From assembly GCA_024762875.1 (NCBI GenBank), contig JANTGR010000001.1, forward strand, positions 45,338 through 109,337: DNA of 64,000 nucleotides, in the 5' to 3' direction. A program made the translations under genes and the position numbers. Below are positions 2,594 through 6,733 of the stretch, one piece after another (positions within the stretch are counted from its first letter, which is position 1; each line of letters opens with the position of its first letter). Source of the stretch: Sulfurospirillum sp. (GTDB taxonomy: Bacteria > Campylobacterota > Campylobacteria > Campylobacterales > QNZT01). The notes beneath the pieces were generated by a model. It was not told where the DNA came from. It worked only from the letters and a program-made list of their open reading frames with translations, and made no database searches.

Positions 2594-3204
2594 AAAGAAC
2601 ACTGATCTTTGATATGGATGGTACTTTGATTGATTCATCCAAAGTGATAGTCAATTCTATCAATTATGTACGCAGTAAATTAGGTCTGGAAGCGATGGAA
2701 GAAGAAAAAATTTTATTTGCTGTCAATGACATGCAGACAGATTCACCACGTTATTTCTATGAGGTAGAAGCTTTTGAACAGCGGCACATTGTATGGTTTC
2801 AGGAGTATTATACACTTTATCATGATAGGGAAGTTGCTTTGTATCCAGATGTAAAAAGTTTCCTGGATAAAGTTTCACAAAAATACCAGCTCTCTTTGGC
2901 TACGAATGCATACAGAGAATCTGCATTACAGATTTTACAGCATCTGGAGATTGAACATTATTTTGATATTGTAGTGTGTGCTGATGATGTGCAAGCCTCC
3001 AAACCTCATCCTGAAATGATAAAAAAAATTCTATTACATTTTGATGAAATACCAGAAAATGCACTGATGATAGGAGACTCATTAAAAGACAAAGAAGCCG
3101 CAAAAAGAGCAGGGGTTGATACTATTTTGGTGGATTGGGGATTTTCTGATTTGGATGGGGCGTGTAAAGAGGTCAAAACATTGGAAAAATTGTTGGGTGT
3201 ATAA
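2581..3204 (+). CDS. HAD-superfamily hydrolase (phosphoglycolate phosphatase-like)
   Basis: 207 aa. HAD motif I is IFDMDGTLIDS, motif II is LSLATNA, and motif IV is MIGDSLKDKEAAKRAG. It overlaps the upstream gene by 13 nt. Confidence 0.8.
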   Translation: MSDVKRTLIFDMDGTLIDSSKVIVNSINYVRSKLGLEAMEEEKILFAVNDMQTDSPRYFYEVEAFEQRHIVWFQEYYTLYHDREVALYPDVKSFLDKVSQKYQLSLATNAYRESALQILQHLEIEHYFDIVVCADDVQASKPHPEMIKKILLHFDEIPENALMIGDSLKDKEAAKRAGVDTILVDWGFSDLDGACKEVKTLEKLLGV

Positions 3205-3244: not shown

Positions 3245-4495
3245 CTAAAATTTGTACGATATTCCCGTGCTGATGAGCAGGGCGGCAGCATCTTTGAATG
3301 TGCCGTCTATCTCTGCATTTTGTACGCGTCTTTCATCTTTACTGTCATAGAGGATACTGGCTCCGATTTCTATGGCATCACTGTATTTGTAGCGTACTCC
3401 TCCAGAGAAGAGTGTTGCATCAGAATCAGGCAGTTCAAATCCGATATTTTCCTCAGGTGCCGGGTTTTCATCCACTGCTACAGCACCCATGATGGTTAGT
3501 TTTTTATTGACTTGATGCGTGATACCGACTCTAAATGCATTGGTATCCTGCCAATTTCTCTGCTTTGGTGCATCAAATGCAGCCTGTAAAGCCAAAGGTA
3601 CTGTGTCTTTAAATTGAAAATCAAGTGTTTTATAAGTGGACCAGAAAGTTCTGTCATATTCGAGTTCAAGAACGGTTCCATCAAAATCATAAGAGAGTGC
3701 CAGTGCTGCTACAGCAGGTAGCGGTACTTCTACACTGGCTCCGCCGTCATAGAGTTTTGTCCCGCTGAGATAGAGTTTGGCATTGCCTTCTTCATTGATA
3801 TCTACATTTGAGCGGTATGTTGCTGCGATAGTGAGTGGGGAAACAGGTTTATAGGTAAGTGCCAGATTGTAGCCGTATTCTATCGTATCTGCTTCCATGT
3901 CACGACCTGCAGGTTTATTGATGAGTCCGCCTGAAAGTGCTGTGATCGTCGTTCCGTCACTTTTAACTATTCCTTCACTGTATATCATTCTCAAACCACC
4001 ACCAATGGAAAATTGATCATTCACCTTGTAGGCCATGACAGGATTGAATTCGATAATTTTAAGTGTGAACTCTTCTGCAAAAAGCTTTGCAAAAGCTGAT
4101 CCCCATTTTTTACTCAGTCCCCCTGGAACTGTCATTGAAAAACCATAACGGATCCCGTCGTAATCTTTCGATGTATAGAAAAAAGAAGGAGCAAAAAGAT
4201 TTTCTGCCCCTGATTGTGAGTTTAACAGCGCAGCTCTTGCTGCCTGGCTGTCTGTATAAGTGATTTTACTTAAATTGATATAGGTCAAATCTCCTTCAAT
4301 TTGGTTGGCATTGTCATTGAAAACCATATTGGCCGGGTTATAATAAGCTGTGTCAGCACCATGTGCATTGGCAACATAAGCTGCAGCAAGTGCCGTAGCA
4401 TTCATAGATGATTCGGGCAGTCTGTATCCACTGGCAAAGAGCATGGAAGATGTTAGCAATGAGAGGGCGGTTGTTTTGTATATGATGTTTGTCAT
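3245..4495 (-). CDS. fadL: FadL/OmpP1/TodX-family outer-membrane transporter for hydrophobic compounds
   Basis: 416 aa. It has a signal peptide (LLTSSMLFASG), beta-barrel-like alternating sequence, and an aromatic C-terminal residue (ISYKF). The overall pattern fits the FadL family. Confidence 0.75.
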   Translation of the reverse strand: MTNIIYKTTALSLLTSSMLFASGYRLPESSMNATALAAAYVANAHGADTAYYNPANMVFNDNANQIEGDLTYINLSKITYTDSQAARAALLNSQSGAENLFAPSFFYTSKDYDGIRYGFSMTVPGGLSKKWGSAFAKLFAEEFTLKIIEFNPVMAYKVNDQFSIGGGLRMIYSEGIVKSDGTTITALSGGLINKPAGRDMEADTIEYGYNLALTYKPVSPLTIAATYRSNVDINEEGNAKLYLSGTKLYDGGASVEVPLPAVAALALSYDFDGTVLELEYDRTFWSTYKTLDFQFKDTVPLALQAAFDAPKQRNWQDTNAFRVGITHQVNKKLTIMGAVAVDENPAPEENIGFELPDSDATLFSGGVRYKYSDAIEIGASILYDSKDERRVQNAEIDGTFKDAAALLISTGISYKF

Positions 4496-5772: not shown

Positions 5773-5852
5773 GATAACTCCTAAAAATTTATATTAAAAA
5801 ATATTATAATGATACAGAAAGCTTCATTAAATCTTTGCTTTACCGATATAAT

Positions 5853-6124
5853 TATAGGGCACCTCTAAAATCCTAGGTACTCATAATGGGTTTTGAAAAG
5901 GTAAGATTTGCATCGAGATTTTTGAAATCCTAGCCGAAGCTAAGATAAAAAAATATCTTTGTGAAGATTGCTTTTTCAAAGCTCACCCAAAGGGCATCAC
6001 TAGCTTTTCCTTAGGCGTTGTTACACACTCTTGAATTAGCTACGGCTAGTCCTGCGAGTGAGTGCCTAGCCTAAAAAAAAGCTAGTGATGTTATGAGTAC
6101 CTAGGATTTTAGAGGTACCCTATA
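5853..6124. repeat. 272-bp nested inverted-repeat element (MITE-like or structured RNA)
   Basis: The outer arms are 5853-5886 and 6091-6124 (34 bp, 1 mismatch). An inner stem pairs 5995-6016 with 6069-6090 (22 bp with a 2-nt mismatch). A third complementary pair, 5930-5943 with 6036-6049 (14 bp, 1 mismatch), crosses the second stem. Confidence 0.7.
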
Positions 6125-6145
6125 GAAAACAGAGCAAGGATGATA

Positions 6146-6733
6146 ATGATTGCAAAACTATTAATGCGACCTTTTGGGTCATTTTGGACGATTAAAGAGA
6201 AGTGTCAACAAGAAAAAAATCCATTGTTAAGAAAAGTCTATACGACATTGTATAAAATGTATCTGTATGAAAACAATGCAGATATCGCGCTAAGTAGTTA
6301 TTTTGCCGGTGAACCCTGTATGCCACACGGTGAAAGAGGTGTATTTGTCTCTGGGGCAACCCAGGTTGGTAAAAATGCTATTATTTTTCAACAGGTTACA
6401 ATAGGTTCTGTCACACTGCCGGATTCCAACGGTTTGGGCGCACCTACTATCGGTGATAATTGTTATATCGGGGCTGGTGCCAAAATAGTCGGAAAAGTGA
6501 CTATCGGTAACAATGTCAGAATCGGTGCCAATGCAGTGGTCTATAAAGATGTGCCTGATAATTCGGTGGTGGTCTCAGCAGAACAAAAGACAATCACCAA
6601 AAAAGAACCATTGATCAATAGATATTATACCTATGATGATGACTTGGAAGGTTGGTCTTATTTTCAAGATGGCAGTTGGGTGAGGGTAGAAGACAAAGCA
6701 CTGATTGCTGTTCTGAGTGGTGAAAGAGCATAA
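6146..6733 (+). CDS. hexapeptide-repeat acetyltransferase, serine O-acetyltransferase-like
   Basis: It has an LbH repeat region (GAPTIGDNCYIGAGAKIVGKVTIGNNVRIGANAVVYKDVPDNSVVV) typical of the CysE C-terminal half. It lacks the SATase N-terminal domain and carries a ~45-aa C-terminal extension. The ATG at 6146 has better AAGG spacing than the ATG at 6140. Confidence 0.65.
   Translation: MIAKLLMRPFGSFWTIKEKCQQEKNPLLRKVYTTLYKMYLYENNADIALSSYFAGEPCMPHGERGVFVSGATQVGKNAIIFQQVTIGSVTLPDSNGLGAPTIGDNCYIGAGAKIVGKVTIGNNVRIGANAVVYKDVPDNSVVVSAEQKTITKKEPLINRYYTYDDDLEGWSYFQDGSWVRVEDKALIAVLSGERA

Follow-up and report, generated by a model that had tools for sequence, protein, structure and literature searches.

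Transposable elements of the IS630/Tc1-mariner group insert at TA dinucleotides, and the TA is duplicated (PMC2170065). The miniature inverted-repeat elements of bacteria (MITEs) typically carry TA at their termini and give rise to long stem-loop transcripts (PMC2229807). The Correia repeats (NEMIS) of Neisseria are co-transcribed with their neighbours, and their long stem-loops are cleaved by RNase III; the orientation-dependent effects of the ERIC (IRU) sequences on mRNA stability point to roles at the RNA level (PMC2229807). The Stowaway elements of plants are also MITEs (PMC1925063).

In the window, that is, the whole 64-kb stretch of DNA analysed here, a spacer of 367 bp (positions 5773–6139) lies between a LIP-family lipase gene (minus strand) and a hexapeptide acyltransferase gene (plus strand), and the neighbouring genes also include those of a FadL-type porin, a Mur ligase and hydrolases. 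An identical lipase is encoded on a contig from another sample (L130), which begins inside the element described below. We consider it probable that this short divergent spacer contains a non-autonomous transposable element (MITE) of 268 bp, inserted at a TA. The terminal arms (5853–5886 and 6091–6124) are 34 nt long and 97% complementary, with the single mismatch that an earlier note on this DNA had reported; the arm pattern occurs at two sites only in the 64-kb window and was matched in none of 100 shuffles. The nested pairings described in the same note were recovered as well: a 22-nt stem between 5995–6016 and 6069–6090 (91% complementary), a 14-nt complementarity between 5930–5943 and 6036–6049 (93%), and the segment AAATCCTAG, found at 5868 and 5925 and as an inverted copy at 6101. 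An imperfect hairpin is present besides these at 5887–5985. It was also confirmed that the interior is richer in G+C (0.397) than the neighbouring spacers (mean of 0.308 for 20 other spacers) and that the element has no ORF, the longest stop-free stretch being of 45 codons and no ORF of at least 40 aa starting within it. Its size (268–272 bp, non-coding) is that of a MITE. The outermost TA on each side (5853–5854 and 6123–6124) is most readily taken for the duplicated target, which leaves 5855–6122 (268 bp) as the element itself. The arm pattern and the family profile both indicated one copy of the element in the window. Its parts are the following:

5853..5854, no strand: TA, left copy of the presumed target-site duplication (flank counts over 54 elements; TA at the L129 empty-site junction).
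5855..5886, no strand: left terminal inverted repeat, TAGGGCACCTCTAAAATCCTAGGTACTCATAA (pairs with 6091–6122, one mismatch).
5887..5985, plus strand: hairpin A, a degenerate counterpart of hairpin B in reverse complement (folding, covariation, minus-strand profile match).
5986..5994, no strand: mini-hairpin CCC-AAA-GGG of 3 bp, on which the pseudo-palindrome is centred (CCC/GGG in 52–54 of 54 elements).
5995..6090, plus strand: hairpin B, more conserved than any other module of the family (inverted repeat 5995–6016/6069–6090; retained in short forms).
6030..6055, plus strand: core motif CTTGAATTAGC-TACG-GCTAGTCCTGC (4-bp helix, variable loop of 3–6 nt, invariant internal loop UUGAAU/GUCCUGC).
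6091..6122, no strand: right terminal inverted repeat (pairing with the left repeat).
6123..6124, no strand: TA, right copy of the presumed target-site duplication (flank counts; junction comparison).

Lipase homologues 75–76% identical to that of the window are encoded on contigs L129 and L127, where the order of genes is syntenic with the window: hydrolase, Mur ligase, acyltransferase and, divergently, lipase, FadL-type porin, HAD hydrolase and Na/H exchanger. The lipase/acyltransferase spacer measures 106 bp in L129 and 198 bp in L127, compared with 367 bp in the window. Both relatives align with the window on either side (CCGATATA..., with the lipase promoter and leader over their full length) but have no counterpart of the 272 bp. 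The junction in L129 reads ...TTTAT-TA-GAGAATATATCGG, and that of the window, in the same orientation, ...TTTTC-TA-(element)-TA-ATTATATCGG. A second set of filled and empty sites was found in Gammaproteobacteria, where L103 carries the element and L176, L178 and L179 are empty. The rpmJ stop codon is TAA in the three empty sites, and it lies 90–96 bp ahead of rpsM in the two contigs in which rpmJ was called (L176 and L179). In L103, the element directly follows the TA of the rpmJ stop codon, and this TA together with the first G of the element forms TAG; the far flank is CA, so only one flank is TA and the duplication is only half intact there. The search for empty sites in relatives that the earlier note had recommended thus revealed both states at two loci, and these sequence comparisons establish the window element as an insertion relative to its syntenic relatives.

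The same comparisons bear on two other explanations of the segment. According to the first, it would be the gene of an independent, structured non-coding RNA, or else would act in cis as a regulatory leader of the acyltransferase mRNA, with the outer stem as the closing helix. The end of the element, 11 nt before the ribosome-binding site of the acyltransferase, would suit a leader, but the syntenic relatives keep both genes without the element. According to the second, a segment of about 200 bp enclosed by 34-bp inverted repeats and placed between divergently transcribed genes could be an inverton, an invertible promoter segment that switches one of the two genes. However, the relatives lack the segment as a whole, and no recombinase domain was detected in the seven ORFs tested within about 5 kb. 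A scan of the spacer for promoters and terminators yielded nothing above the shuffled expectation, which speaks against an RNA gene and against an inverton alike.

To find relatives of the element, metagenomes were scanned with the pattern TGAATTAGC-N(3-6)-GCNAGTCCTG, and at least 120 loci were obtained. A few of the matches listed are chance matches in coding sequence; the rest have one architecture, consisting of TA, a terminal inverted repeat of 32–35 bp, hairpin A, the CCC/GGG mini-hairpin, hairpin B, the second terminal repeat and TA. Among the matches listed, 54 distinct full elements of 264–283 bp could be delimited and were aligned. Across these 54, the sequence of the mini-hairpin triloop is free, and hairpin B of the family contains the invariant CUUGAAUUAGC-loop-GCUAGUCCUGC. 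Short forms of about 160–170 bp are composed of the arms and hairpin B, which is kept, hairpin A being missing (e.g., in L002). Also among the matches listed, host backgrounds range from about 30% to more than 60% G+C, and the nearest copies to that of the window are L003 (85.8%) and L119 (82.8%), both in different gene contexts.

The copies are dispersed. For pairs of listed elements with an identity of 88% or more over 230 nt or more, the flanks were unrelated in 39 of 40. Two copies on one contig were observed in L028 and in L095 (two different subfamilies). Elements cut by a contig end amounted to 18 of about 108 among the matches listed, approximately twice a rough expectation, which lends weak support to repetition; a repeat family would also explain why vent and sediment metagenome assemblies break at this sequence. 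No gene recurs as a neighbour across the family in the matches listed, and the element occurs in both orientations relative to adjacent gene starts. One copy lies inside a 16S rRNA gene in sense (L115), one inside a 23S gene in antisense (L020) and one shortly after the end of a 16S gene, in what is presumably the 16S–23S spacer (L052). The hosts include Campylobacterota, uncultured Gammaproteobacteria (one subfamily) and the other bacteria whose rRNA genes contain copies; the RpoA of L103 has 91% identity with a protein under the name 'MAG: Gammaproteobacteria bacterium'. An apparent cluster of 23 loci with YchF as partner gene was rejected as an artefact of the ORFs, since stop-to-stop ORFs read through the element itself, and extra matches to the terminal repeat in L050, L099 and L103 were chance matches inside coding sequence.

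Outside the metagenomes, a similarity search of phage and plasmid collections gave a single match, on a plasmid of Sulfurovum mangrovi, and in the same collections neither the high-G+C members nor the terminal repeats by themselves gave a match. This 395-kb plasmid carries one copy of the family, flanked by icd and an mdh-like gene; its interior and that of the window copy are 78% identical, and the 35-bp outer arms differ in sequence and still pair with each other. A scan of species-representative genomes with the core pattern added two more homologues, one without hairpin A in a Sulfurimonas MAG and one upstream of gatA in a Campylobacterales MAG. When viral contigs were scanned with the terminal repeat of the window, 45 single chance matches were obtained, none of which fits the family profile.

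Taken at the level of sequence, these results demonstrate a large family of dispersed repeats of 264–283 bp with additional short forms. Homologues thus exist in many unrelated genomic contexts, and the repeat character that had been proposed for the element applies to the family; in the window itself there is a single copy only, which, like the single copy on the Sulfurovum mangrovi plasmid, counts against a MITE. The distribution argues against an RNA gene on several counts: the neighbouring genes are unrelated and are met in both orientations, near-identical copies occupy unrelated loci, and there are truncated copies and copies in rRNA genes, sense as well as antisense. It is equally difficult to reconcile with an inverton, given that members of the family are also found at gene ends, between convergent genes and in rRNA genes, and that the interior is kept as a folded structure; we therefore regard a promoter switch as extremely unlikely.

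Folded as a single strand, the 272 nt adopt a Y shape with a predicted energy of −136.5 kcal/mol for the plus strand and −127.7 kcal/mol for the minus strand, whereas shuffled 272-nt sequences reach about −63 and −60 kcal/mol, respectively (z of about −15 on both strands). In the 54-sequence alignment, RNAalifold predicted 85 pairs, 76 of them with double changes. The proportion of paired cells was 91.7%, whereas column shuffles gave 58.6% and controls with slid partners no more than 45.5%, and the covariation score was 0.841 versus 0.216. Every one of the 27 pairs of the outer stem has double changes across the 54 homologues; helices 2–6 of hairpin A are 82–95% paired with a double change in every pair, and helices 8–12 of hairpin B are 88–99% paired, all pairs of the variable helices 8–11 having double changes. 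Hence, the nested hairpins seen in the window covary massively among homologues, and the alignment demonstrates a predicted Y fold that compensatory changes have preserved in Campylobacterota, Gammaproteobacteria and other bacteria. The extreme stability of the fold and the strong covariation in all helices are features that would fit a structured RNA. The pseudoknot that had been deduced from the crossing 14-nt complementarity was not supported, as the pairing between the hairpin apices is canonical in 69% of cases across the family, compared with 83% and 99% for the local helices, and it breaks where the helix of hairpin A has changed without compensation. The crossing complementarity arises because hairpin A is the reverse complement of hairpin B.

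As the core served as the search pattern, ascertainment explains part of its invariance within hairpin B. Independently of this pattern, hairpin A of many subfamilies carries the reverse complement of the core, GGACU-helix-AAUUCAAG, and its small helix covaries (UAGC/GCUA, UCCC/GGGA, UAAC/GUUA, UACC/GGUA). The sequence profile of the family matches both strands of every element, with nearly equal scores in some subfamilies (113/97 bits in L081 and 112/135 bits in L095), and it matches the minus strand of the window at 5979–6078 with E = 7.8e-9. On sequence grounds, the whole element forms a degenerate palindrome with the mini-hairpin at its centre, in which hairpin A repeats hairpin B in inverted orientation. 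The recurrence of the conserved loops as reverse complements in hairpin A is unexpected if only one strand were functional, as in an RNA gene.

The mismatches in the helices were unevenly distributed. In the outer stem, G.U (65) and A.C (54) showed no G.U bias, whereas hairpin A had 166 G.U and 17 A.C and the variable columns of hairpin B 5 G.U and 28 A.C; the two invariant U.G pairs of hairpin B accounted for 103 G.U and no A.C. All of these counts ignore shared ancestry. The overall pairing is 91.7% for the plus strand and about 86% when A.C is counted instead. An RNA gene would account for the better pairing of the plus strand and for its G.U excess in hairpin A, but not for outer-stem mismatches without a preference for G.U. 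From these patterns, the outer arms appear to behave like two copies of a duplex-DNA site, and each hairpin appears to behave as a single-strand structure of the strand whose 5' to 3' direction points inward from the terminus of that hairpin. Because the wobble tolerance is mirrored between the two inverted hairpins, the module would be symmetric and single-stranded: the inverted hairpin modules would act in the same manner at both ends, in the form of single-stranded DNA during transposition or replication, or of read-through RNA from either flank. The mirror-symmetric wobble and the inverted hairpin copy fit a two-ended mobile DNA better than a one-strand RNA gene, and, all in all, we consider an RNA gene or leader unlikely. 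Accordingly, of the structured-RNA interpretation in the earlier note, the covarying hairpins stand; the inverted hairpin copy, the mirrored wobble, the occurrence in both orientations and the result of the promoter and terminator scan count against it.

Single-strand folding at both ends also recalls palindromes mobilised by HUH/Y1 enzymes, of the REPIN/RAYT or IS200/IS605-PATE kind, in which the hairpins would be the structures recognised by the enzyme. Consistent with such a mechanism, each end has a hairpin with an invariant loop, the two being inverted relative to each other like those of REP doublets; the mirrored wobble tolerance suggests that one DNA strand folds per end; and a loop length of 3–6 nt favours a hairpin over a double-stranded recombinase core site. 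Nevertheless, near-perfect terminal repeats of 32–35 bp with TA on both sides in a YTAR context are features of DDE cut-and-paste transposition, and elements of the IS200/IS605 kind are not known to carry inverted repeats or to make duplications. In addition, no RAYT or TnpA gene adjoins any of the copies among the matches listed, the sole transposase found beside a copy is of the IS630 type, and the elements, of about 270 bp, greatly exceed in size the REP units of 20–40 bp (PMC3733652). We judge this mode of mobilisation to be very unlikely, and membership in the REP or REPIN-RAYT class was rejected on account of the unit of about 270 bp, the terminal repeats of 32–35 bp, the TA flanks and the absence of a recurrent neighbouring gene among the matches listed. 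Other candidates were also discarded: a retron msr-msd, as a reverse transcriptase is not among the neighbours and no neighbour is conserved across the family, and a group I intron, a ribozyme, a tracrRNA nexus, an IncP nick site and a sigma-54 promoter, for which the spacing or order is wrong and there was no Rfam support. Each of these last five presumably has a short string in common with the core.

Returning to the MITE reading, the flanks of the 54 elements were counted after anchoring on the conserved termini. The left flank has T in 40 of 54 and A in 48, and the right flank T in 44 and A in 38. One position further out, pyrimidines prevail on the left and purines on the right, so that the pattern is YTA|element|TAR; a TA also stands at the junction of the L129 empty site and at empty sites of the L103 type. 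The check for target-site duplications recommended in the earlier note thus showed TA flanking most copies; the duplication is a presumed one, since TA is palindromic and a duplicated TA is not formally separable from a TA that belongs to the inverted repeat. On the basis of the flanking sequence, the TA in a YTAR context is a signature of IS630/Tc1-mariner transposition. The stop codons of incoming genes overlap the ends of the element in at least 20 loci, and start codons are often located 1–25 nt beyond the ends. The first base of the elements is G or A, so that an element inserted at the TA of TAA or TAG restores a stop codon; this would explain why many copies are placed exactly at gene ends, and it offers a simple rule for where these elements are tolerated.

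A link with a transposase was found in one lineage. The region 787–2015 of L011 is a decayed insertion sequence of the IS630 family that directly abuts a short-form element. Three of its ORF fragments match the NCBIfam model of the IS630 transposase NF033545 (at 13–108, 130–199 and 227–299) and also Pfam HTH_32 and DDE_3. This insertion sequence is flanked by TA and has the termini GTACAACGTCCAGTT and GTACCTCGTCCAGTT, which can be compared with those of the gammaproteobacterial MITE subfamily (GTACTCCGACCAGT in L010 and GTACTCCGTCAAC in L046): GTACnnCGnCCAGT is common to both, the first 14 bases or so are largely alike, and there is no likeness beyond the termini. No other IS630 copy was detected among the collected loci, and for the termini of the subfamily to which the window belongs (TAGGGCACCTCTAAAA) no transposase or parent insertion sequence was found in the plasmid, phage and viral collections or among the collected loci, which counts against the model. 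We propose that a DDE transposase of the IS630/Tc1-mariner type mobilises the element in trans; the enzyme would bind the terminal repeats, excise the element and paste it into a TA, thereby duplicating the TA. Such mobilisation fits the target-site evidence and the terminal similarity observed in one lineage.

At the locus of the window, the acyltransferase probably starts at the ATG at 6146, since the acyltransferase of the relatives begins with ATGATTGCAAAA; with this start, AAGGA at 6136–6140 would be its ribosome-binding site. The element lies 11 nt upstream of this site and 80 nt upstream of the lipase start. The ribosome-binding site is left free and the conserved lipase promoter region is untouched, and the insertion in front of the ribosome-binding site means that 272 bp of very stable structure part the acyltransferase from any promoter in the spacer. 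The element would probably be co-transcribed into the 5' leader of the acyltransferase as a very stable structure, and the 32-bp terminal duplex of the transcript may be a substrate of the RNase III type and could be cleaved. Both proposals are based on the anatomy of the locus and on the precedent of Correia and ERIC (PMC2229807).

The classification as a MITE is supported by small size, lack of coding capacity, terminal inverted repeats (34 nt in the window and 32–35 nt in the family), dispersed copies and filled and empty sites. Thus, the MITE interpretation put forward in the earlier note gained support from the dispersed homologues, from the two states of the insertion sites and from the TA-flanked ends, and the covariance-model scan that the note had recommended pointed to no RNA family: with Rfam 15, the region of the window gave no relevant match up to E = 10 (only chance microRNA-like matches), and ten other members of the family, including high-G+C ones, gave none up to E = 1, a result that also disfavours an RNA gene. 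Literature searches, one of them with the literal core sequences, yielded no description of such an element. Yet the family departs from a plain MITE model in one aspect. Bacterial MITE families, to our knowledge, as a rule stay within a genus and keep their ends conserved; here the interior is conserved across phyla and the terminal repeats are wholly divergent, which is the reverse of the usual pattern and counts against a plain MITE. A conserved interior with diverging ends implies a function beyond the transposon model. We tentatively suggest, as a possibility that we consider less likely than not, that the interior may be a functional nucleic-acid module carried on interchangeable ends of the IS630 type, either as a small structured RNA set free from host transcripts by RNase III cleavage of the terminal duplex or as a structure of single-stranded DNA or RNA on which the element would depend for transposing or for rendering insertions harmless. 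If this is true, these would be cross-phylum 'RNA-carrying' MITEs, and the invariant loop UUGAAU/GUCCUGC would bind a widely conserved partner. For this genome, the consequence is a matter of routine annotation, namely a MITE that lengthens the acyltransferase leader and is to be masked as a repeat; the interest of the family resides in ends that change completely while the Y-shaped interior and its invariant loop are kept, which suggests an unrecognised function of a mobile element.

Compared with described systems, insertion sequences of the IS630 family such as ISY100 share with the element the terminal inverted repeats, the TA target and the TA duplication (PMC2170065). They differ in that they encode a transposase, which the element does not, and the approximately 14 terminal bases in common with the L011 insertion sequence concern one subfamily only. 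The RUP element of pneumococcus resembles the family in being non-coding, with terminal inverted repeats, inserted at TA and dispersed intergenically, and in its presumed mobilisation in trans by a transposase of the IS630 family, attributed to IS630-Spn1 (PMC2229807). In contrast, RUP is 107 bp long, has 9-bp repeats and occurs in one species (PMC2229807), whereas the family described here is of about 268 bp, has repeats of 32–35 bp and extends over at least two phyla. Unlike in RUP, its conserved part is the Y-shaped fold of the interior and not the ends.

The Correia repeats (NEMIS) of Neisseria have in common with the family the TA termini, the long terminal inverted repeats (24 bp) and the occurrence of long forms alongside short ones, distinguished by an internal segment (PMC2229807). 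They are different in their length of 107–155 bp, their restriction to a genus and their IHF site, while the element studied here has no known protein site and a three-way-junction interior. The Correia repeat begins with TATAG too, and is not known to have any further sequence relationship to the family. The ERIC (IRU) sequences of enterobacteria are likewise imperfect palindromes in transcribed intergenic regions and are unusually conserved across genera (PMC2229807). However, their length is 127 bp, their terminal repeats are of 7 bp and they form one long hairpin. We know of no sequence similarity between ERIC and the family. Stowaway elements, which derive from Tc1/mariner, duplicate TA, are non-coding, have a strong potential for secondary structure and resemble their autonomous partner only at the termini of the repeats. 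Nevertheless, they are eukaryotic, and in them the terminal repeat is the conserved part and the interiors are not conserved between families. The family therefore differs from RUP, Correia, ERIC and Stowaway in its size, in the breadth of its distribution and in its conserved interior.

The family member in the gammaproteobacterial locus L103 (L103:2353-2617) lies exactly at the stop codon of rpmJ, in the alpha-operon region. Comparison with the empty sites of two relatives (L176:1462-1557 and L179:964-1053) revealed that the insertion changed this stop codon from TAA to TAG and placed 265 bp of extra sequence ahead of rpsM.

In the window, the listed ORF of the acyltransferase gene that follows the element starts at position 6140 (ATGATAATG...). 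Because relatives begin with ATGATTGCAAAA, the ATG at 6146 is probably the true start, with AAGGA (6136-6140) as the likely ribosome-binding site. The element itself includes a 15-codon ORF on the plus strand (5886-5933; MGFEKVRFASRFLKS) that begins on the inner edge of the left repeat and terminates at a TAG in the apex of hairpin A. ORFs of the same length were observed in the copies of L003, L119 and L092, the counterpart in the Sulfurovum mangrovi plasmid (L001) has 18 codons, and the short form of the family does not have it. This ORF probably exists as a by-product of conservation at the nucleotide level.

In L127, a syntenic relative of the window, the spacer at the empty site (2803-3000) exceeds that of L129 by about 90 bp and contains an unrelated stretch with a small GC hairpin, GCCGGAATTTCGGC; this stretch may be a further small insertion. 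In the S. mangrovi plasmid (L001:3892-3951) and in the Sulfurimonas MAG L002 (about 4068-4130), a conserved hairpin distinct from the element, its arms 26 nt long, is located just outside it and precedes the mdh-like gene.

The 2.8-kb contig L095 carries two oppositely oriented copies (155-428 and 2030-2307) that differ in subfamily and in terminal repeats; therefore, distinct subfamilies coexist within one genome.

Short-form elements were also found in or beside rRNA genes of uncultured, AT-rich bacteria, in both sense and antisense orientations:

L115, about 1712-1746, in the 16S rRNA gene
L020, about 676-699, in the 23S rRNA gene
L052, about 2097-2120, downstream of the 16S rRNA gene

In rRNA precursors, these elements would be intervening sequences. 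Another short-form member (L011:620-786) directly abuts a decayed insertion sequence of the IS630 family (L011:787-2015), whose ORF is broken by frame into three fragments, whose termini begin with GTAC and which is flanked by TA.
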